A DNA stretch of 64,000 nt from Candidatus Latescibacterota bacterium (lineage in GTDB: Bacteria > Latescibacterota > UBA2968), in NCBI GenBank assembly GCA_965198115.1, contig OZ240241.1, positions 2,048,001 to 2,112,000 on the forward strand, read 5' to 3'. A program made the position numbers and the translations under genes. The notes under the pieces are model-generated. The model worked only from the letters and a program-made list of their open reading frames with translations. It made no database searches and had not been told where the DNA came from. This document shows positions 4,076 to 61,123 of the stretch, piece after piece (the first letter of the stretch is position 1; every line of letters starts with the position of its first letter).

Positions 4076-4192
4076 AGTCAGTCCTCCACAAGCCCGTTGC
4101 TGGGAACGATCCATACAGAATCTATTCCAACCAGCCGCGAGAGTCAACCCTGATTTTTCGCATAAAATAAATAAAATCAATAACTTATATAT

Positions 4193-4221
4193 TTGACTTC
4201 GGATGCGAATGTCACTATATT
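4193..4221 (+). promoter_or_regulatory. Sigma70-type promoter
   Basis: TTGACT-N17-TATATT preceded by an AT-rich UP-like tract. Confidence 0.6.
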
Positions 4222-4303
4222 AAGGGCGTGACAGAACAAGGGGCTGATGCCGAAACGCGGCGTCAGCCCCATTCGTTTGCCCCTCGGCGTTCGAGAGGAC
4301 GGC

Positions 4304-4331
4304 TTGACAGGACCTACCTAACATCTATCTT
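4304..4331 (+). promoter_or_regulatory. Second sigma70-type promoter upstream of the response regulator
   Basis: TTGACA-N16-TATCTT. Confidence 0.45.
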
Positions 4332-4413
4332 CCTCAGATGTTTACCGTGCTGCCACGCTCTCCTCGACCACTCCTCGGAGCCGATTCTCGACCGTCCGCC
4401 CCGGCGTCCCATC

Positions 4414-5115
4414 TTGAGTGAAACACCCGAAAGATATGCCCATCTGCTCCTGGTTGCGGACGAGGCACGGGGTGTTAGACTCAAATCCGACCTCGAGTTC
4501 ATCGGATACACGATCAGCCTGCTCGTGGTCGACGAAGCGGGTCGTCTTTCCGACGCCCGGGCGCCGGTCGAGGACACCCACGCGATCATCATCGACTTCG
4601 ACACCGACTGGACGACACTCTCCCAGATCGTCCAGGAGGTGCGGGTCAAATTCGGCCAGAAAACCAGACCCCTCCTGATTTTTACGGATGAACGGGTCGC
4701 CCTCGAACTGGACTTCTCAACCGGTGTGACCGACTTCATCGTTCGTCCCTATTCCCTCCGAGAAGTCGAAGCCCGGCTGCGTCTGGCGCTTTGGAACGAG
4801 GACCGGCCCGACGACGCCACGACCGTTAAGGTCGATAACCTCGTCATCAACACGACCCGCTACGAGGTACGTGTCGACGGTAACGCGGTCAACCTGACGC
4901 TGAAGGAATACGAACTCCTCCGACACCTTGTGACCCATCGGGGCCGGGTCTTTACCCGGGCAGACCTTTTAGACAACATCTGGGGATACGACTACTACGG
5001 CGGGATGCGCACGGTAGACGTGCACATTCGACGGCTTCGATCCAAGCTCGGATCGGTGGGGGGCCGAATCACGACGCTTCGTGGCGTGGGCTACCGCTTC
5101 GATCACCCGGGCTGA
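4414..5115 (+). CDS. OmpR/PhoB winged-helix response regulator with atypical (GlnR-like) receiver
   Basis: LTLKEYELL...WGYDYYGGMRTVDVHIRRLRSKL...RGVGYRF; receiver Lys replaced (DFIVRPY); start codon uncertain. Confidence 0.88.
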   Translation: MSETPERYAHLLLVADEARGVRLKSDLEFIGYTISLLVVDEAGRLSDARAPVEDTHAIIIDFDTDWTTLSQIVQEVRVKFGQKTRPLLIFTDERVALELDFSTGVTDFIVRPYSLREVEARLRLALWNEDRPDDATTVKVDNLVINTTRYEVRVDGNAVNLTLKEYELLRHLVTHRGRVFTRADLLDNIWGYDYYGGMRTVDVHIRRLRSKLGSVGGRITTLRGVGYRFDHPG

Positions 5116-5473
5116 TCAGGACCCACCACGCGCCGCACCGCGTTCAGCAGATCGGTGATCATCACCGGTTTCATCAACACTTCGGCGACACTGAACTCCT
5201 CGATTCTCGTGGCCACGACTTCTCCGGGAAGTGTCCTGTCATCACGACCACGGGTACCTCGCTACCGGCCTTCCTCAGCTCCTCCAGCACCTCGAACCCA
5301 TCCAGTCTGGGCATCTTCAGGTCAAGAATCACAAGGTCGAAGGTTCCTTCCAGGGCCGCTTCGAGTGTCTCCTGTCCATCTTTCGCCACGAGAACCTCGA
5401 AGCCGTTGCCCTCGAGCATTTGTGCGTAAAGCCGCCGGATCGAAGGTTCGTCGTCAGCGAGAAGCAGCCGCAT
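5103..5473 (-). CDS. Single-domain response regulator (frameshift near 5222)
   Basis: MRLLLADDE...LDLKMP...MTGH, continuing in another frame as EVVATRIEEF...LMKPVMITDLL. Confidence 0.8.
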
Positions 5474-5969
5474 GCGGGACCATCGGATCAGGGGGTGGGG
5501 ACGCAGGTCGTAACACGCCAAATCGATCTTCGAGCACCTTTCGACGAAAGTCGAAGATCCGGTGTAGATTACGACCCACGACCGTGCTGTGAGCGACTCT
5601 CCCGAGCGGACCGAAGGGGAGGCCATAATTCACGATGTCGCGCATTTCGATTCCCCCCGGAACTTCGCCAAAGCGATGCTGGTGGTGCCAGAATTTATAG
5701 GGGCCGAATCGCTGCTCATCCACAAAGTACTGGGATTCTTTGACGTGCGTAATCTCCGTTACCCAGCTCAGTCTCAGTCCGAAGAACGGATGCAGTCGGT
5801 AGGTGATGATCATTCCCGGCCGTAGACGTTCCCCGCCTCCGTCGATCACTCGCAACCCCAGCATCGGTGGTGTGAGGTCGCCCAGGTTCAACGGATTGGA
5901 GAAAAACCGCCACGCCCGATCCACCGAAATGGGCAGACGCTGAACCCGATCGATCACGTAAAGTCGCAC
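5454..5969 (-). CDS. SRPBCC family protein
   Basis: AWRFFSNPLNL, FVDEQRFGPYKFWHHQH and IFDFR motifs. Confidence 0.88.
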   Translation of the reverse strand: MRLYVIDRVQRLPISVDRAWRFFSNPLNLGDLTPPMLGLRVIDGGGERLRPGMIITYRLHPFFGLRLSWVTEITHVKESQYFVDEQRFGPYKFWHHQHRFGEVPGGIEMRDIVNYGLPFGPLGRVAHSTVVGRNLHRIFDFRRKVLEDRFGVLRPASPPPDPMVPHAAASR

Positions 5970-5972
5970 GAC

Positions 5973-6959
5973 CTAGTGGGCGGCAGCGTAGTGCTGTCGG
6001 AGAACATCCTCGCCAAAATCGTTCACGAGATCGCGCCACACGGCGTGAATGTGGTTGGCTTCATTCTGGGTGCAGTCGTATTCAGCAAGAAACGTCGGCG
6101 CGAGTACACGGTAGTAGTGCCCTTCGCCCCGCGTCTCGGGCCCTGCCCACGCGAACCGGATGTCTCCATCATCGGTCGCTTCGACCCGCGCTTGCTCGTC
6201 GGTCGCGAGGGCGTCGGGCAACCGCCCCACGTAAACGTCGATCAGTTCGGCGAGCGTCGTCCGCTGCGTCTCGTTCATGTTGTCGGCCGAAAGCCCGTCG
6301 GGTTCCGAGTCGAGTTCCGACGTCACCTTGGGGACGTTCTTCGTCAGGAGGTCTGCCGGTGCTTCGGCATTCACGATCGCTGAAGCTTTCTGGTCCCCGT
6401 CGAGGGAGGCGAGCAGGTCGCGGGCGACATCCTCTTCTTCTTTGAGCGCCCGGACACCTTCGGTGCTGCCGTGAAGCACCTTTGCGGGGTTGGCACCCAG
6501 GAAAACGGGTGTCGGACCGATCAGCTCTCCGTCGACGATCGCGTAGTTCACCGAAACGTGATGCCCTTCGAAGCGCCACCCCCATCGATGCTCGTCTCCG
6601 GGCGTTCCAAAGATGCTTACGTAGTAGATCTCCGGGTCTCGTCGCCATTTTCCACCGGGTCCCTCCATCTCACCCAGGATCGGCTCCAGGTCGATGATGG
6701 TCCTGGCGCGATGCATTCCCGAGCCGCTCAGACCCGTTCCCAGAAGACGATGGGCAAGCTCCACCTGCCACCCGTCCATGTCTTTGAGCGTCAAACCCTT
6801 TCGTTCGACCGGTGTATAGTGCCAGTTTCGACGCTCCTCTTCGTCGTCGAAGTCGAGTGTCGCTCGCGCCTTCTGGTCGTCGCCCAGGGCCGCGAGAAAG
6901 TCGGTGGCGGCGTCGGACATCCGTCTGATGATGTCGCCGTGACGAAGATGGCTGCTCAT
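5973..6959 (-). CDS. DUF3500 domain protein
   Basis: WGWRFEGHHVSVN, FAWAG and NHIHAVWRD...DFG motifs. Confidence 0.88.
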   Translation of the reverse strand: MSSHLRHGDIIRRMSDAATDFLAALGDDQKARATLDFDDEEERRNWHYTPVERKGLTLKDMDGWQVELAHRLLGTGLSGSGMHRARTIIDLEPILGEMEGPGGKWRRDPEIYYVSIFGTPGDEHRWGWRFEGHHVSVNYAIVDGELIGPTPVFLGANPAKVLHGSTEGVRALKEEEDVARDLLASLDGDQKASAIVNAEAPADLLTKNVPKVTSELDSEPDGLSADNMNETQRTTLAELIDVYVGRLPDALATDEQARVEATDDGDIRFAWAGPETRGEGHYYRVLAPTFLAEYDCTQNEANHIHAVWRDLVNDFGEDVLRQHYAAAH

Positions 6960-46276: not shown

Positions 46277-47411
46277 ATGAAAATCACGGACGTCACAACC
46301 ACCCGCTTCAAATACACCTCCAACACTGTCCGCGACACCGACGGCCACGGCCATCCTGGCCCCGAGCACGAGGCGATTCAAACGCTGCTGCAGATCGATA
46401 CCGATGAAGATGTCAACGGCTACTGGTTCGGCGCGAACCCGTCCATCGTCGAGAGCGTCATCAAACCCGCGCTCGTCGGACTCGATCCGTTCGATCGCGA
46501 ATGGATCTGGGACGACCTGAACCAACGACAGCGTCTGAATCTGGGAACGATGTCCGATCGCGTGCTCTGCAGCGTGGACTGCGCGCTGTGGGACCTCGCC
46601 GGCCGGGCTCTGGGGAAACCCGTTTACAAGCTCCTCGGCGGTTTTAGGGACACAGTCCCCGCCTACTGCAGCACGATGTGTGGCGACGACCTCGAGGGCG
46701 GTCTCGCGACGCCCCAGGACTATGCCAACTTCGCCGAGTGGGCGATGAAGAAGGGCTACCCCTCCTACAAACTCCACACCTGGCAGCCACCCTACGAGGG
46801 TGCTCCCAGCGTCAAGCGCGACCTGGAAGCGTGCGCTGCGGTACGTGACGTCTGTGGACCGGACGTGCCGCTCATGCTCGATCCCTACCACTACTATGAC
46901 AGGGAAGCCGCGCTCAAGCTTGCGAAGGGTCTTGAGGAAATCGACTACTACTGGATGGAAGAGCCCATGGACGAGCACAGCATGTCCTCATACATCTGGC
47001 TCACCGCGCAGACGTCGCTACCGATCTGCGGGCCGGAAACGTGCGAGGGCAAGATGTACGTCCGTGCCGAGTGGATCAAAAACAACGCGTGTGACATCAG
47101 CCGTGCCGGTGTCGGAGACGTTGGTGGCATCACCCCGCTGATGAAAACCGTTCACCTCTGCGAGTCGTTCGGGATGCGATGTGAAATCCACGGTGGGGGC
47201 CCCGGCAATCTCCACGCGCTCTGTGCGATGAAGAACGGCGAGTTTTACGAGCGTGGACTCCACTCCCTTCATCGAATTCGACGAACCCGCCGCCTGGCTC
47301 AACGAGCTTGTCGACCCTATGGACGGTCAAGGATTCGTCCACGTTCCGCAGACACCGGGCCTCGGAATGAATATCAACTGGGACTACATCGAGAAGAACA
47401 AGGTCGATTAG
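46277..47411 (+). CDS. Mandelate racemase/enolase superfamily dehydratase (frameshift near 47260)
   Basis: ALWDLAGR, KLH, MLD and WMEEP motifs; true C-terminus (PQTPGLGMNINWDYI) lies in another frame. Confidence 0.87.
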
Positions 47412-47859
47412 GCCAAGGTCAGTTCTCAGAAGTCAGCGGAAATGCAAAGACCGCCCATCTTATTCATGCATCTGGCTACCGCTCTGGGTGGATATCGGTG
47501 CAGCTCCACAACTGAGGTGATATCGTATCGCCTTCCAAACGAGCCAACGGCCCGTAATACCTCAGCCCAGCCCAACGGGCTGGGGTCATCCGAACAAGCA
47601 AACGGGCACAGCGGGCCACAGCCCGCGATATCACCATCACAGGCGCATATCCGACACCTCACCTGGAGGAAATTTCCCCGATCCCGTCGTACGGTCTTTC
47701 CCGAACACTGAACACCTACCACTTAACACCTTATTTTACAACATCTTATCACCAATCAATCAACCGCTCTCTCAATTGGCACACCCCGTGCCCAGGTAAA
47801 GGTCGGACTGTAGAGCACCTCCCACGCTCTGGTTTCCCCGATCAATCGAGAGAGTCAAG

Positions 47860-49958: not shown

Positions 49959-51290
49959 TCACGCGCTTCGTGCCCAGAAGCTCGTCCGATCGTTCAGCTC
50001 GGTTTCCCATCGCGACATCTCACCACGCAGAGCCTTAACGACGTCGGCCTGATCCCGATCTTCGATCAGATTCGTCATTTCCCAAGGATCGGTTTTCAGA
50101 TCGAACAGCTGAGACGTTCGGTTCCCTTCCACTGCGTACTCGATCAGCTTGTGATCCCCACGCTTCGCACTCCGCTGAAACGCCTTGTAGGCGTATAACA
50201 GTGTCTCCCGCACACACTCGGATCCATCCCCCATCGCATTGACCAGACTCTCGCCTTCGACGGAGTCCGGAATCGGAAGGTCGGCCAGATCGAACAACGT
50301 CGGATAGATATCGTTCAGGTAGCAGTACGCCTCCCGGCGCTCGCCCCTCGGAATCCCCGGCCCCCTGAACACCAGAGGAACCCGCACGCTGTGCTCATAG
50401 ACGTTCTGTTTGCCCATCAGACCGTGTTGCCCCACGGCCAGCCCGTTGTCGCCCGCGAACACGACGATCGTATTCTCTCGATGACGCGTTTCTTCCAGCG
50501 TATCTAACAGCCTACCCACCTGTCGATCCAGGTGGGAAATCATCGCGTAATAGTCGGCGAGGTGCTGGCTCACGACCTCGGGCGTTCGGGGAAACGGCGC
50601 CAGTAGCTCGTCCCGCGTCTCCAGATCTCCGTTGTCGAACGGATGTCGCTCAAAACAGTTGGGCGGAAGCTTCAGCTTCTCCGCATCGTAAAGCGCGTGG
50701 AATTCCGGATGCGTATCACGTGGGTCGTGAGGGGCAGTAAACGAGACATACGCGAAAAATGGGGCTTGCCCATCGTAGCTTTTTAGAAAGTCGATCGCCG
50801 CCTCTGAAAACAGATCGCTCGAATGACGCTTGCTTTCTTGATAGATGCCTGCCTCAGCGTAGGTCCCCGATTCGTCGTAGGGATTGAGGGGCACCTTGAA
50901 GTGATCGCTCATTCCACCGAAGAAAATCCGGTCACCGTGGTCGAAGCATCGCGCGAACGCCGGTCGGCCGTTGTGCCACTTTCCCGTCCCGAAGGTCTGA
51001 TACCCGTGATCGCGTAGGGCTTCGGGCATCATGATGTGATTTTCCGGGATCGACTGTCCTTCCCCCTCGAGATGGAAAAGCGTGCGCCCCCGTCATCAGC
51101 ATGGCCCGACTTGGCATGCATACGGCGCCCGACGTCCCCCCATAATGCTGGCCTCGGTGAACATCGTCCCCTCTTCGACCAATCGGTCCAGGTTGGGTGT
51201 AATGACATCGTCGTTCCCGAGCGCGCGAATCGTGTCGTAGCGCTGATCGTCCGTGAACAGAAACAGAATGTTGGGTTTTGAACGGTCCAT
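49959..51290 (-). CDS. Cys-type sulfatase (frameshifts between about 51050 and 51140)
   Basis: [21 protein letters not shown] and GDNG motifs spread across three frames. Confidence 0.85.
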
Positions 51291-51577
51291 CAGTCGCTCT
51301 TCTCGATCTCCCAGCCTGTCAGAAAACTTCGGTCCTCTTCCATCGGCTGACACCAGATCCTCTTCGCCCGAAATCGCACTTCGAATTCGACCATTTCCCC
51401 GCCTCCCGTGTAGGCATCCAGATCATCGATGTCGTCACACCACAGCTGCAGACCCGAGGGACTGATGTCCACGATCTGAACATCCCTGAAGCCTCCACCA
51501 TCGACCTGTGCTTCGACCGGAAGAGCCAACCGCAACCGCGCGTTGCGGCGTTGATCGTTACCCGTTGCTTCTGCCAT
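51290..51577 (-). CDS. PilZ domain protein
   Basis: QRRNAR (RxxxR) and DISPSG (DxSxxG) motifs. Confidence 0.75.
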
Positions 51578-54735: not shown

Positions 54736-56155
54736 GGCTCTATCCGGGTTTCTCAACGGTGAAACTATAGAATGACAAGGTCATAGATCGTTCCCTACGC
54801 TTGGTTGTGTGTGTAGGACAATCAAAGCGAAGGGGGTGCGACCTATGACCGGGAGCAGATTACTATCGAAACTGCTGAGATTCAAGGGGTTCCGTGTTGT
54901 CAGCTGGTGGTTTGAGGGGAGAAGCTGTTTCGTCATCGCCGTAAAGCCACATAAGAATGGTTGTTGTTGTCCGGAGTGCGGCCGTCGAGGTAAAATCGTC
55001 CGCACAATGCCCCATCCGCGTCGGTGGCGTGACATTCCGGTGTGCGGGTGGAGGGTCTGGCTTCTCTACCATCCTCGGGAGATTCGGTGTCCTACCCACG
55101 GTCGTGTGGTCGAGGAGATTCCGTGGGCGGAGCGGTTCTCTCGGGTGACGTATCGCTTCGAGTATGCCATGCTGCGCTACTGCCAGACCATGACGCAGAA
55201 GGCGGCGTCCGAGTTACTGCGCATCTCTGCCTCGACGCTGTCGGATCTCCTTCACCGATCCATCACGCGGCTTCGTGAAGGTCATCGTATCCGAGGGCTC
55301 AAAACCATCGGGATCGACGAGATCTCCTACGCCAAGCGTCACAGGTACGCCACGCTCGTTTACGATCTGGACCGCTCCTGCGTGGTGTGGGTTGGCCGCG
55401 GCAGGGCGCGTAAAACGATCGATCGGTTCTTCACAGAGGCTCTCAGTCCCTACCGGAGATCCAAGATCGAGTGGGCCTGCTGCGACATGAGCGAAGCTTA
55501 CATCGGAGCCATCCAGGAACACTGTCCGAATGCCAAGCTGGTCCTCGATCGCTTTCACATCGTCAAGGCTCTCAATGCCGCCGTTGACGAGGTCCGTAAG
55601 GACCAGTGGCGTAAAGCTGCCCCGGATGAGCGCAAAGCCATGAAGGGCCTCCGATGGCTCCTCTACCGGCACTCAGCGACACGCTCCAGAGGGGATACTC
55701 GGACACTCAAAGCACTGGAGAAGGCGAACTACCGAATCTATAGAGCCTGGAGACTCAAGGACGAGTTCGAGCAGTTCTGGGAATACAAAGCGCCCTGGGC
55801 TGCCGAACGCTTCCTGAAATGCTGGACGACGTCCGCACTCAGAAGTCGACTTGAACCCCTGCGAAAGTTCGTCAGGACCCTGCGACAGCACTTCTTCGGC
55901 GTCCTCGCATTCGTGAACACGCGTCTTACCAACGCCATCGCCGAAGGCCTCAACCGAATCGTCCAAATCGTCAAGAACCGAGCCAGCGGATTCCGCACAC
56001 TCGACGCATTCAACGATATGATCTTCCTTACCGTCGGAGACATAAACATCCCTGAGCAGATTCCGAAGAGGTTCCGCACACGCTAACCGCGCCCCCATGC
56101 CAGGAACCACGGCACCTTCACCCACTTCATCTCGTTGAGAGATCCGGATATAGCC
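54736..56155 (+). mobile_element. ISL3-family insertion sequence
   Basis: Imperfect IRs GGCTCTATCCGGGTTTCTCAACG / CGTTGAGAGATCCGGATATAGCC; flanks ATAAAAAA / ATTAAAAA form an 8-bp direct repeat with one mismatch. Confidence 0.9.
54846..56086 (+). CDS. ISL3 family transposase
   Basis: CPECG zinc finger; IGIDE, CDMS, LDRFH and EGLN motifs. Confidence 0.93.
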
Positions 56156-56242: not shown

Positions 56243-56733
56243 GTGATAGAACCTAGTCAGATCCGGTTACCATTCGCAAGCTTCGGGCAAGGTAGTTGAG
56301 GCTGATTTTGCCGGTGGCGCCGTCAGGAGTGACGGTGGAGTTCTGTTGCTTCGCGCCCTTGAGTCTCAGATGGGATTGATCGCCAGAATGGTAGATGCTT
56401 TGCGAGATCGTCGTCACCCAAGCTATATCGATCACACGCTTTTGGATCTTGTGAAGCAGCGTGTTTTTCAGATCGCTTGCGGCTATGAAGATGCCGTCGA
56501 TTGTGATGATTTGCGCCACGATCCGGGCGTCAAGGCTGCCTGCGATCGGCTTCCTCTTTCCGGTCCTGATCTCGGGAGCCAATCAACGATGACACGACTT
56601 GAGAATGATGTGCGACGCTCGGATTTGTATCGGCTCGCACGGGCTTTTGTAGACGGGTTCATCGCATCGTATGACCAGGCACCCCCAAGCATCATTCTCG
56701 ATATCGACGACACGGATGACCCAACGCACGGTG
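56243..56733 (+). pseudogene. IS1380 transposase 5' fragment
   Basis: SDGGVLLL, QRVFQIACGYED, LRHDP, SQSTMTRLEN and LDIDDTDDPTHG motifs, then similarity stops; frameshift near 56285. Confidence 0.85.
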
Positions 56734-56775
56734 CCGCCCGCGTACTCACACCATGAAGGTCAGAAAGGAATTGTA

Positions 56776-56940
56776 ATGGCGCATCTTCGAAGAATTAATC
56801 GACATAATAACACCAAGAAGAAGAATGGCAACACGCTTTCGTGCGATGACGGGTTCTACTACCCCGCCCCTGCCAAAACCCCCGATCTCAAGTCTGACGA
56901 TCAGGTCCAGGCCAAAGAAGCGAAGAAGAACGTCGCGTAA
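56776..56940 (+). CDS. Putative RiPP precursor peptide (54 aa)
   Basis: AAAGGA RBS; MAHLRRIN resembles the SCIFF leader MKHIKTLN; stop codon is 5 bp before the radical SAM start. Confidence 0.75.
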   Translation: MAHLRRINRHNNTKKKNGNTLSCDDGFYYPAPAKTPDLKSDDQVQAKEAKKNVA

Positions 56941-56945
56941 GGGTA

Positions 56946-58354
56946 ATGCTGAAGAAGTCTGACATCCATCTGTTCGACTACGAAGGCCGCCCAATCGTAC
57001 TTCAGATCCAAACGGGCGATTTCTTCGAAGTCACTCGGCTCGTCGCTGAGATCCTCCGATCGGATGACGGTATCCGTCGCGAGGATCTCGTAGCCGACCT
57101 CTCTCCGAGCCACGGTTTCGAAGCCGTCATCGACGCGCTTTCGGAACTCGAAGCGGCGGACCTGGTCTCGTTCGGCCCAGTCTGCCCGCTCGTCGACTCG
57201 GGGGACGGTGCGGTGGTCCCTCCCACCCGCACGTCCGCCGAGACGATCACGATCACCCTCCACGTTTCGCACGCCTGTAACGTCACCTGCTCGTACTGCT
57301 TTGCACTCGGCGGCGACTATGGCGGGGAACCCAAGCTGATGGCCTGGAAACGGCGAAGCAGACTGTGGATTGGCTGATCGAGGCAACTCGAGATGCGGGT
57401 CGGTGTCAGATCGACTTCTTCGGAGGCGAGCCGCTCCTCCATCTCGGCCTCGTGAAGAAGACCGTGGCTTATGCGCGCCAGCAGGGCGCTGCGAACGGCG
57501 TTGCGGTTTCGTTCGGAATGACGACGAACGGAACCCTCCTATCGGGCGACGCACTCGAGTTCCTGATGGAAGAAGACATTGGAATCATGGTCAGCATCGA
57601 CAGCCCCAAGGAAGTCCACGACGCACAGCGCAGCTTCAATAACGGTGAGTCGACGTACGACATCGTGGCGGCGAACACGACAGAAGCTGCCCGCCGTGCG
57701 CCCGACAAGGTCTTGCTCCGGGCGACGATGACGAATAAAAACCTCGACATGATGGCCCTCGTGGACGAACTCGAGGGTTTCGAGGTCAATTCCGTTGGTG
57801 TCGGACCAGCGTGGCTTTCTCATCATCATCCTACGGCGATTCGGAAAGAGCACCTCCCCGAACTCAGGAAGCACATCCGAACGCTCGCAAACGATGAGCT
57901 GAAGCGTATCAAAGAGGGGCACAAGGCTGAAACATTCGCACCATTGATCAAGAAAGTCTTGTCGGGACAGAAGCGGGAATACGGGTGTGGTGGTGGGAAG
58001 ACCTACTTTGGCGTCGACGTCGATGGCGACATCTATTTCTGCTCGGCCTTCGGCAGCATGCCCGAATACAAAATGGGCGACGTCTGGAAGGGGCTGGACC
58101 CCACGGTGGACGCACGTTTCCGACGCGACTTCCACGTCGACAACAAGAAGACGTGCAGCCAGTGCTGGGCCCGATACCTCTGTGGCGGAGGCTGTGCCTA
58201 CGATGCCAGGGTATCAACCGGCGAACCCACCGAACCCAATCCGGTCGCTTGCGAGCGTACCCGCTACTCGCACGAACTCGCAATGGGAATGGCTCTCGAG
58301 CTGAGCGACCACGCACCGGATGCACTCGACCGCCTCCAGATCGAAAAGGTCTGA
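56946..58354 (+). CDS. RRE-radical SAM-SPASM peptide maturase (CteB/QhpD-like), frameshift near 57347
   Basis: CNVTCSYC, FFGGEP, TTNGT, SID; SPASM CX12GX4C...CX2CX5CX3C...C; N-terminal PqqD/RRE-like domain. Confidence 0.9.
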
Positions 58355-58364
58355 CGGAGATAAA

Positions 58365-59786
58365 ATGAGCAATCAAACACACACGACAAAGACCCCCTTG
58401 CCGATGGCGGAAACCCCAGAAAGTGCCCCCTCTGCGGGTCTAAATGCTTCGGCAAGGGGGCCGAAACGTCTCCCCCACGAGGGTTGGATGTTGGCTCCCC
58501 TCTATGTCGCCGAACATCATCTGTTCGAGCACAATGGTCGCACGCTTCTCTTTGGCGTCGGAACGGCCGACTTCTTCGAGATCGATGATGTCGTCGAGGA
58601 TGTGCTGAAGACAATCGAGGGCACCACACTCATCCAGCTGTTCGAGCGTCTTCGATCCTCTCACGGCGAAAAGGATCTCTACAGCGCAGTCCGCGAACTC
58701 CGTGAGGCCGAGATCGTTTCCGAAGAGCGGCTTGCCCGCCCGACGGCACCGGTCCTTCCCGGTCGTCTCGAAGTTTCGGAAATCGTCCTTGAAGTAACCA
58801 CGGATTCTCTGTCAGCACAGAGCGGGAGTCAGTATCTCCGTCCGGCGACCGGTCGAGAGGCCATCAGACTGTTGATGGAGGAGTCGGGGTGTCTCCGCAC
58901 GTGTTCCCTCACGCTCACGGGAGAGCCACTCCTCAATTCCCAGCTCACACTCGATCTGCTCGATCACGCCATCGAACGCGCCGAGCAGATCGGCAAGCGA
59001 TTGCGCCTGGCCGTCGTCACCAATCCAAGATTGGTGAACGAGCGTATTCGTATCTCGCTGAAGCGTCGTGGTGTCGATCTCGTCATCAACGACACAGCGG
59101 GTACGCTCGAAGGCGTGCACGGCTCGGGACCGGCCAGCCTGCAGAGAAGCGCGCTCACGAGTAGTCCACCCACGCATCTTCGCATCGAATCGGTGGATGA
59201 AACGCCGGTGCACCAGATTCGAGAGGCTTTAGACGAAAATCAAAACCTCGCGACGGTCGATCTCCCACCATCGACACCCGGACACCTCTGTCCTGTCTCC
59301 GAAAGAGATCTCGAAGAACTCAGCGCATTCGTCAGCCAGCACGTCATGTCCTCGAAAATGACCTGGATCGGCCCGATCGAGGACTCGGCGGCTCAAGTCT
59401 TCAACGGCCGCCGCGCCAGCTACGGCGACTCAGCTGGCATCACCAGTCTCGCTGTTGGCTGCGATGGAACGATTTACGTGTCCGAAGAAGTCATCGGAGA
59501 TTCCCGCTACCGGATGGGCCACATCCAGAGTGGGCTCGATCAGGGCCGGCGGGCTCAGTGGATTCGAGAAGCCCACGTCGATGCCCGACCCGGCTGCCAG
59601 ACCTGTTGGGCCCGACATCTCTGCGGTGGCGGGTCGACGGTGGCGGTGGGCAATTGCCCAGATCCCGACTCCGACTACTGCACGATCGTGCGTCGGTCCT
59701 ACGAACTGGCAATGGGTTTATGCGTAGACCTCGACGTGCGAAACCCCGATCTCCTCGAACAACGCTACGGACAGGGTGCTGCGTGA
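58365..59786 (+). CDS. Degenerate RRE-radical SAM-SPASM paralog lacking CxxxCxxC
   Basis: N-terminus aligns with the first maturase (HLFE...TADFFEI); LTGEPLL; CQTCWARHLCGGGS...YC. Confidence 0.82.
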   Translation: MSNQTHTTKTPLPMAETPESAPSAGLNASARGPKRLPHEGWMLAPLYVAEHHLFEHNGRTLLFGVGTADFFEIDDVVEDVLKTIEGTTLIQLFERLRSSHGEKDLYSAVRELREAEIVSEERLARPTAPVLPGRLEVSEIVLEVTTDSLSAQSGSQYLRPATGREAIRLLMEESGCLRTCSLTLTGEPLLNSQLTLDLLDHAIERAEQIGKRLRLAVVTNPRLVNERIRISLKRRGVDLVINDTAGTLEGVHGSGPASLQRSALTSSPPTHLRIESVDETPVHQIREALDENQNLATVDLPPSTPGHLCPVSERDLEELSAFVSQHVMSSKMTWIGPIEDSAAQVFNGRRASYGDSAGITSLAVGCDGTIYVSEEVIGDSRYRMGHIQSGLDQGRRAQWIREAHVDARPGCQTCWARHLCGGGSTVAVGNCPDPDSDYCTIVRRSYELAMGLCVDLDVRNPDLLEQRYGQGAA

Positions 59787-60990
59787 ACATCCTCTTCTAC
59801 CAGGACACGTCGGGAGTCAGCGGGGCGGAGATATGGATCGCCGACGCCGCTCGACGTCTGCGCGAGCGAGGGCACGGGATCAGCCTGTCAGCGCCGACCG
59901 AATCCTGGATAGCTGCCCAAGACCGGCATCACGGATTCCCGCTCGTCGATTTCTTCTCCGGCGATGGATTCGACGCCCATCGGCGGTGGATCCTGGCTGA
60001 ACATCTTTCTGCAGCGAGCGTAGACATCGTGGTGTGCAGCATTCCCGGCGCAAGGATGGAGGTGCCACTCCTAGATCAAGCGATTCGGGATGCGGGACGA
60101 GGTAAAATCCTGATTCGTCTGGGTGTCGCCCCTGGCGAAGGCGCCTTTCCACCCGAACGAGTGGGCTACGGCTACGACACCGTTAGTGGGATCATTGCTG
60201 TCTCCCGCGACGTCAAGCATCATCTCGTCCGCAACTTCCCGATGCTCGACAGAGACAGAATCCACGTCGTCTACAATGGCGTCGACCTCGAGCGATTCGG
60301 TCCAGAAACCCACAGCGACGTCGAACGTGCCTCCCAGCGACGCGACCTGGACATTCCCGCCGACCACCGTGTCGTCGCGGCCGTCGGACGGCTCGATCCG
60401 ATCAAGAATCTGCCTTGCCTGATCGACGCAGCCGACATCGTCCTCGAGCGCTTCCCCGCGACCACCTTCGTCATCGCTGGCGACGGTGCAGAACGCGTCA
60501 CGCTCGAAAAATGCGGTCGTCTCCAAAGGGTTGAGTGACGCCTTTTCGCTTTCCCGGTTTCGTCAAAGATGTCCCTGGACTGTTGTCCATCGTCGACATC
60601 GTCGTGCATCCCTCCCTGTCGGAGGGCGTACCCAACACGCTTTTGGAAGCAATGGCTGCCCAGAAGGCCGTGGTGGCATCCGAGGTCGGTGGAATTTCGG
60701 AGGTCGTCGACAATCCTGAAGTCGGCGTGCTCGTTCCCCCCGCCAGTCCATCGGCTCTGGCCGAGACACTCACATCCCTCGTCGGCAGCGAGGATCGACG
60801 CGCAGGACTGGGCTCGAGGGCCCGAGCGCACGTTCTATCTCACTTTGACCGAGCCACCAACATCAGACAGATCGAAGACCTGTTCGACCAGGTTCTACGA
60901 TCGGCAACACCGCTCGCACCGGCGTCCGAACAGCAGCTATACGATCCACCCTACGCGTTTACTGCGCGTGACCATCTGTTGCGTGCATAG
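59783..60990 (+). CDS. GT4 (GT-B) glycosyltransferase (frameshifts between about 60510 and 60550)
   Basis: SGAE, VYNGVD, VGRLDPIKN, PSLSEGVPNTLLEAMA and VGGISE motifs; GTGA overlap with the upstream gene. Confidence 0.88.
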
Positions 60991-61123
60991 TCTGCCGGCG
61001 GCCGTCGGGTGGGCCGCCGGTGGACCATAGATTGGGAACCCCACAAAAGCTTCAGACGTGCAAAGAGTCGGGCAATCTTCTTCTGGGAGGATGCCCGTTT
61101 GTTTTTGACTAAACAGGCCTTCA

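Follow-up and report, generated by a model that had tools for sequence, protein, structure and literature searches.

Evidence for a selected, SAM-cluster-less radical SAM/SPASM protein beside a glycosyltransferase in Latescibacterota, and its possible role as a peptide-recognition adaptor

Background

The closest described relatives of the protein family considered here are the radical SAM (rSAM) peptide maturases of the CteB, PapB and QhpD type. The defining motif of radical SAM proteins is CxxxCxxC, and the SPASM domain is marked by seven cysteines, the ligands of the auxiliary clusters AuxI and AuxII. In PapB these are C352, C370 and C421 for the first cluster (AC1) and C408, C411, C417 and C440 for the second (AC2), according to PMC10470005. 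Two accounts treat the role of the auxiliary clusters of SPASM enzymes as an open question (PMC10470005, PMC10114670), and the former describes engineered cluster-deletion variants of PapB as unstable and only partly reconstituted.

Proteins of this general type that lack the SAM cluster have been noticed before. The names of the models TIGR04150 (pseudo_rSAM_GG), TIGR04304 (GeoRSP_SPASM) and TIGR04347 (pseudo_SAM_Halo) show that cluster-less rSAM partners are recognised, and TIGR04150 is reported to occur paired with an active rSAM beside a precursor (PMC4573289). On the side of tailoring enzymes, RRE-Finder predicted RRE-directed glycosyltransferases in uncharacterised RiPP clusters (PMC7470986). 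Pseudo-rSAM partners are, in short, already known as a kind; the family described below is uncatalogued, and a full-text search limited to a set of open-access papers found no publication on this family or its gene cassette.

The cassette in the window

The window, by which we mean the whole stretch of 64,000 nucleotides analysed, contains a short gene cassette downstream of two IS elements:

54809..56086, + strand: ISL3 transposase (NF033550, 303 bits), upstream of the cassette, at the place occupied by the regulator gene in relatives
56346..56756, + strand: truncated IS1380 transposase, ending about 40 nt 5' of the precursor start (repeat edge at 56734)
56776..56940, + strand: putative precursor peptide, 54 aa, whose leader, HLRRIN, has the form H-x4-N and whose single cysteine is part of L-S-C
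56946..57377, + strand: active-type rSAM/SPASM maturase, 5' piece, with RRE and CxxxCxxC; frame break near 57345-57350
57347..58354, + strand: 3' part of the maturase, out of frame with the 5' piece, with the seven SPASM cysteines all kept; same letters in Logan contigs X1 and X2
58365..59786, + strand: pseudo-rSAM/SPASM protein (P0001), with N-terminal extension, RRE, partial TIM barrel without SAM cluster, and SPASM domain with AuxII ligands only
59783..60538, + strand: GT4 glycosyltransferase, 5' piece, starting at a GTG that overlaps the stop codon of the pseudo-rSAM (GTGA)
60535..60990, + strand: GT4, 3' piece, in another frame, with an EGVPNTLLE motif; break between about 60505 and 60545

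Small open reading frames homologous to the precursor sit 5' of the maturase in related loci as well. We take the H-x4-N leader to resemble that of CteA.

Lost and retained motifs of the pseudo-rSAM protein

P0001 is encoded by a single open frame, stop-free in translation, of 473 aa. Its start is supported by GGAG 7 nt upstream and by the homologous N-terminus of P0005, a protein of 69% identity. The following features were located in it:

58425..58439, + strand: APSAG motif in the N-terminal extension, which is modelled with low confidence
58500..58727, + strand: RRE (about residues 46-121), from homology and the AF2 model
58788..58826, + strand: cysteine-free loop at the CxxxCxxC site, about 10 residues shorter than in the maturase by alignment
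59427..59636, + strand: three replaced AuxI ligands, D355 (59427), S373 (59481) and S424 (59634)
59595..59681, + strand: four kept AuxII ligands, C411, C414, C420 and C439, conserved in 24 of 24 family rows

The loop at residues 142-154 (LEVTTDSLSAQSG, nt 58788-58826) aligns with LHVSHACNVTCSYC in the maturase encoded upstream and has no cysteine left, in agreement with the deletion proposed in the first-pass annotation of this DNA. Its reading of the SPASM domain, with all three AuxI cysteines replaced and the four AuxII cysteines retained, likewise stands up to alignment, as do the intact RRE and the reading frame of about 470 aa. Four of the seven SPASM cysteines are thus present, all of them AuxII ligands, and the assignment fits, since the numbering of AC1 and AC2 in PapB agrees with it (PMC10470005). 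The SAM-binding motifs, on which the first-pass annotation makes no remark, are eroded as well: FFGGEP has become LT-GEP, TTNG has become VTNP, and SxDG is lost. Because the cysteines of both the SAM cluster and AuxI are absent, P0001 is predicted to make no radical. The protein still passes the SPASM model TIGR04085 (32.2 bits, cut-off 27); no Pfam model, PF04055 included, matches it at E<=0.1.

The AF2 model of P0001, built on a 12-row alignment (pLDDT 74.5, pTM 0.71), contains a partial TIM-barrel fold. In a Foldseek search with this model the best matches are to CteB (5WHY/5WGG; E 1.3e-17, TM 0.62-0.69), with TigE and anSME also matched, and P0001 is predicted to keep the CteB-like arrangement of RRE, barrel and SPASM domain. 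Its RRE is 35% identical to that of the maturase over 68 aa (E 4e-12) and is modelled as three strands and three helices (block pLDDT 85-94). Residues 1-34 have pLDDT below 50, and the N-terminal extension is likely disordered. The APSAG motif within the extension occurs in 7 of 7 members of the clade that has no AuxI cysteine at all, and in 0 of 64 other tree rows.

Family, phylogeny and order of cluster loss

Protein and genome searches gave a family of 24 rows, including sequences from 7 of 168 genomes of the phylum. None of the 21 full-length rows that cover the region keeps CxxxCxxC, and all 24 keep the four AuxII cysteines, which are the only cysteines conserved at a level of at least 85%; no alternative cysteine triad was found in the family alignment. 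The AuxI cysteines are complete in 8 rows, partial in 9 and absent in 7, the last being the clade of the window's gene. These motif losses are common to proteins with 38-69% identity to P0001. The database labels of the relatives' GT4 proteins are Gemmatimonadota and Ca. Handelsmanbacteria, which we infer to correspond to Latescibacterota in GTDB. A search of genome contigs for related loci gave only 11 matches, distant and of Bdellovibrio type; viral contigs contained no relative of the pseudo-rSAM, and ESM Atlas returned only generic rSAM clusters for it.

In a 71-row tree (branch supports are SH-aLRT), all 24 family rows lie on one side of a branch with support 99. Three proteins with CxxxCxxC intact, namely the second rSAM gene of G028, P0035 and P0037, join them, and the group so formed is sister to the maturase clade; a 33-row mixture-model tree, obtained by quick search, agrees with the sister placement. 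The G028 second gene (L037:8897-10378), which is followed by a different GT4, and P0035 keep CxxxCxxC, GGE and the three AuxI cysteines, and their AuxII ligands are gone. P0037 keeps CxxxCxxC and all seven SPASM cysteines and has lost the GGE, TNG and SxDG motifs; it is possibly an intermediate on the way to the pseudo-enzyme. Loss of the SAM cluster requires one or two changes, depending on the unstable position of P0037.

A recent tandem duplication is rejected, as a tree that holds the window's two paralogs together has p-AU 2e-7. The pseudo-rSAM and maturase subtrees branch alike (G077/G079, G037, G000, G006/G009). Because the paralogs cannot be held together and the subtrees are congruent, the duplication is old, and the loss of the clusters was stepwise. 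By this phylogeny, the pseudo-rSAM arose by ancient duplication of the neighbouring maturase, and the order of loss in its lineage is the SAM cluster first and AuxI later, in stages, with AuxII never lost.

Selection on the pseudo-rSAM

Pairwise NG86 dN/dS values of the pseudo-rSAM genes are 0.096 for G009/L054 (bootstrap 0.07-0.14), 0.15 for G009/G006, 0.145 for L054/G006, and 0.18 for G077/G079 (dS 1.9, near saturation); pairs below 50% amino-acid identity, which are 24 of the 28 and include every pair with the window's gene, were left out. The maturases in the same four pairs have 0.08, 0.06, 0.10 and 0.15. Constraint extends over RRE, barrel and SPASM domain alike, with values of 0.01-0.13 for the RRE in three pairs. 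Mean RRE identity is 0.42 among pseudo-enzymes versus 0.37 among maturases, whereas the two halves of the catalytic barrel have mean identities of 0.39 and 0.26 in the former against 0.56 and 0.44 in the latter. The barrel is thus relaxed in the pseudo-enzymes, and the RRE is as conserved as in the maturases. In the tree, the branch leading to the window's own gene (0.18) does not exceed the one leading to P0005 (0.21).

The relatives, then, have intact frames in diverse genomes and evolve under purifying selection, and the family data support a selected pseudo-enzyme rather than random decay. The first-pass annotation had described a coordinated loss that did not look like random decay. The second half of this statement is upheld, as CxxxCxxC is found in no ortholog, AuxII is universal, and dN/dS in the relatives (0.10-0.18) is far below 1; the first half is not, as the graded state of AuxI (8, 9 and 7 rows) indicates stepwise loss.

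Gene context across genomes

The usual layout of related loci is a gene for a Ser/Thr kinase-GAF-sigma-54 activator, a -24/-12 box (a fixed search of 700 nt upstream matched one at 13 of the 30 related loci), the precursor and the maturase. The pseudo-rSAM adds to this layout a fixed downstream partner: the GT4 gene lies directly 3' of it in 8 of 8 loci with DNA there (the window, G003, G006, G009, G037, G077, G079 and L054), and in four of them the pseudo-rSAM stop and the GT4 start overlap or nest. Upstream, a maturase lies beside it in 7 of 7 loci where the DNA is available. The GT4 is one of about 44 proteins that make up a distinct subfamily. At E<=1e-45, this subfamily is represented in 7 of the 168 phylum genomes, six times adjoining a pseudo-rSAM and once as an IS-cut remnant; the 21 genomes of genus g4 have none.

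There are 24 maturase loci without a second rSAM, and all 22 of those with downstream DNA lack the GT4 too, while keeping regulator, precursor and maturase, which suggests that the maturase can work alone. The maturases of these 22 loci are orthologous and nest in the same clade as the pseudo-bearing ones.

Two cassettes contain an additional glycosyltransferase between maturase and pseudo-rSAM, a GT9 with a fused RRE-like domain (hhalign 87.9%, E 3e-6):

L161:11045-12409 (G077): RRE-like-GT9 fusion
L162:about 4163-6160 (G079): RRE-like-GT9 fusion

This fusion suggests that glycosyltransferases of the cassette are targeted by RREs.

In the precursors, Ser precedes the conserved cysteine in 5 of 6 cases at GT4 loci versus 2 of 25 at other loci, a comparison among non-independent kin, and this serine may be regarded only as a lead for the acceptor site. 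Many cores read C-x-P, and a reaction of the formylglycine type on the cysteine was considered; as the core in the window reads C-D-D, it is left as a speculation. In G077 (L161:13811-14084) the precursor leader and the L-S-C core are in different frames, and the gene may be frameshifted. Genomes of genus g4 and family f2 (L038-L053, L163-L171) each have between one and three cassettes in which a kinase-GAF-sigma-54 activator is combined with precursor and maturase. The g4 precursors differ from one another in the core around C-x-P and have a terminal tail rich in Asp, a pattern that suggests a peptide-signal system which has diversified.

Proposed function and its alternatives

The first-pass annotation named three roles without ranking them, namely substrate delivery, scaffolding of the glycosyltransferase and electron relay. 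Gene context favours a role in the service of the GT4. With moderate confidence, we propose that the pseudo-rSAM is a non-catalytic peptide-recognition adaptor, which presents the precursor to the downstream, RRE-less GT4. The maturase would first modify the precursor cysteine, likely to a thioether by likeness to CteB and PapB; the pseudo-rSAM would then grip the precursor leader through its RRE, bind the GT4 and present the peptide, which the GT4 would glycosylate. The four AuxII cysteines would likely bind a metal centre with a structural role, in the simplest case a [4Fe-4S] cluster. Several points speak against the adaptor. Neighbouring genes such as those of the pseudo-rSAM and the GT4 can be lost together by simple deletion, and, as related genomes are not independent, their co-loss counts as only about three events when placed on the maturase tree. 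A lone RRE would suffice for delivery, and the kept barrel and AuxII ligands need a further reason. The best experimental precedent, TrnD of thuricin CD, partners a maturase, not a glycosyltransferase. A weak search for fusions of pseudo-rSAM and glycosyltransferase found none among 7989 longer candidates of 854-2435 aa.

TrnD is also the model for the main alternative, which we consider possible but rather unlikely and in which the pseudo-rSAM is one subunit of a maturase heterodimer, binding the active rSAM via the RREs and holding the leader while its partner does the radical chemistry. It is the closest experimental precedent, inasmuch as TrnD can do without its SAM cluster and its Cx2Cx5C site matters (PMC12093266), and both the constant adjacency of maturase and pseudo-rSAM and their congruent subtrees are what such a heterodimer would lead one to expect. 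On the other hand, TrnD cleaves SAM actively and P0001 has no SAM cluster, and the 22 orthologous maturases with precursor and regulator and no second rSAM indicate that a partner is not generally required. The adaptor and the heterodimer are compatible, and a three-protein assembly would satisfy both.

The invariance of the AuxII ligands would also suit an electron relay, in which the maturase would exchange electrons with the AuxII cluster of the pseudo-rSAM from one turnover to the next. Re-activation of PapB is an intermolecular electron transfer, likely via AC2, and the AC2-less variant performs a single turnover; the same source, however, finds FMN/NADPH or flavodoxin enough for PapB (PMC10470005). 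All maturases examined keep an AuxII of their own, AuxII is what was lost instead in the sister lineage (the G028 second gene and P0035), and a relay leaves the fixed link to the GT4 and the constrained RRE unexplained, so that we regard it as improbable.

A regulatory or storage protein, sequestering the precursor or product or relaying to the kinase/sigma-54 regulator, is very improbable: the activator gene and -24/-12 box 5' of many related loci do suggest a signalling peptide, and the clade-specific APSAG extension has no catalytic explanation, but the regulator occurs both with and without a pseudo-rSAM. Equally remote are the readings as a duplicate in decay or as an enzyme that cleaves SAM in a non-canonical way, for although the genome is IS-rich, with broken genes that include both neighbours, and the copy in the window may no longer be under selection, the losses are shared by divergent relatives with dN/dS far below 1, a recent duplication is rejected (AU p 2e-7), and cryptic catalysis would have to do without a conserved cysteine triad and with eroded SAM-binding motifs.

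Returning to the adaptor, a broader version may be offered tentatively, and we would not be surprised to see it fail: a maturase recycled as an adaptor would hand a radical-crosslinked peptide to a dedicated glycosyltransferase, the product would belong to an undescribed class of glycosylated thioether peptides, likely signalling ones, under kinase/sigma-54 control, and the family would form a natural cluster-deletion series that isolates the role of AuxII.

State of the cassette in this genome

The first-pass annotation treated the cassette as working. This does not hold for the copy in the window, where maturase and GT4 are frameshifted and IS elements occupy the promoter and regulator sites, the IS1380 fragment lying where relatives have the sigma-54 -24/-12 box. 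Since both enzymes are frameshifted, the pathway is probably inactive in this genome (G000). Assembly noise was considered as the source of the frameshifts and rejected: the Logan contigs of X1 and X2, which represent one sample, perhaps the assembly's own source, with library type not on record, span 56705-61100 without interruption and agree with the assembly letter for letter, with neither gaps nor differences, and four essential genes, rpoB, rpoC, dnaE and secA, are unbroken (there is also a second dnaE, which is fragmented). Among 16 conserved loci probed, 4 have matches in more than one frame, one being the maturase/paralog tandem and one the GT4; apart from these two, 2 of 14 probed conserved genes are broken. 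The frameshifts are probably real, and the cassette probably inactivated in an IS-rich genome of 8.4 Mb, compared with 5.6 Mb in G001 of the same genus, where a fragment of the GT4 is all that remains of the cassette and lies behind a masked stretch that looks like an IS.

The IS expansion in G000 is massive and accompanied by many broken non-essential genes. Counted at >400 bp and at least 95% identity, the ISL3 element has 249 matches in the genome and the IS1380 fragment 33. In the window, an enolase-family (mandelate racemase-like) gene at 46277-47515 and a sulfatase gene at 49959-51353 are apparently split by frameshifts, as judged by eye from the list of open reading frames. Elsewhere in the genome, G000:C1:1427585-1430107 and 3369365-3370930 (L181, L183) contain two frames of about 1050-1120 aa, each matching parts of both the RpoB and the RpoC model; they likely encode RNA polymerases of the single-chain phage type. 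For experiments on the pseudo-rSAM, the copy in this genome is a poor choice, its partners being broken.

Other SPASM proteins without a SAM cluster

The searches brought up further proteins of this kind. One set (P0042, L074:1050-2795, L078:801-2627, L080:74-2104) has a SAM-cluster-less SPASM protein fused to an S24/S26 peptidase domain, and the genes at L074, L078 and L080 adjoin one to three active rSAM genes; by analogy, these fusions may represent the logic of an adaptor in one chain. A separate SAM-cluster-less family (L068:5764-7908, L072, L077:5983-7920, L082, L083, L088) keeps CxxC-x5-C and has a C-terminal GNAT-like domain; its genes adjoin ABC-transporter genes, with no active rSAM in the flanks fetched. 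Since the peptidase and GNAT fusions are further independent cases, the pseudo-rSAM theme appears to be recurrent. In G000 itself, the frame at G000:C1:4189095-4190279 scores 409.6 bits against TIGR04347 (cut-off 525).

For annotation, it matters that pseudo-rSAM proteins such as P0001 either get no Pfam match or are mislabelled as active rSAM enzymes. For enzymology, the family supplies evolved proteins with AuxI and AuxII only and with AuxII only, and its sister lineage proteins with the SAM cluster and AuxI only, which makes the role of the auxiliary clusters directly testable. If the adaptor reading is true, it also points to a new class of glycopeptides.

Comparison with known systems

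In predicted architecture and fold, P0001 resembles CteB, PapB and QhpD-type maturases (5WGG and 5WHY for CteB; profile match E 2e-51), and it shares with them and with the nif11 equivalog an N-terminal RRE and an adjacent cysteine-bearing precursor. Its best HMM matches are TIGR03906, TIGR04064, NF047865 and TIGR03974, all far below the curated cut-offs of the CteB, PapB, QhpD and nif11 equivalogs (116.7 of 453 bits for TIGR03906, and 93.9 of 518.7, 72.7 of 340 and 65.6 of 425). Unlike CteB, PapB and QhpD, it has no CxxxCxxC, no AuxI ligands and only eroded SAM motifs, and its cassette differs from theirs in the single conserved cysteine of the precursor, the GT4 and the kinase/sigma-54 regulator.

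Neither the genome search (threshold E<=1) nor hmmscan (E<=0.1) matched P0001 to TIGR04150, TIGR04304 or TIGR04347, and at the locus TIGR04304 is seen only at E 0.77, on the maturase. To judge from these profiles, the family is of independent origin from all three, with another precursor and other partners.

The likeness to TrnD is one of motif layout. Both are second rSAM-type proteins that retain an RRE, the SAM cluster of TrnD being dispensable, and the Cx2Cx5C motif and later cysteine of P0001 (C411, C414, C420, C439) recall C383, C386, C392 and C412 of TrnD; yet TrnD has CxxxCxxC, cleaves SAM and is required by TrnC (PMC12093266), whereas the orthologous maturases here are often partnerless, unlike TrnC.

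The RRE-GT fusions in the G077 and G079 cassettes are of the sort predicted with RRE-Finder (PMC7470986). The GT4, unlike these, has no RRE-like extension, and the proposed donor of the RRE is the whole pseudo-rSAM. If the adaptor reading is true, a whole dead rSAM used as a recognition subunit is an added way to target a tailoring enzyme to a RiPP.
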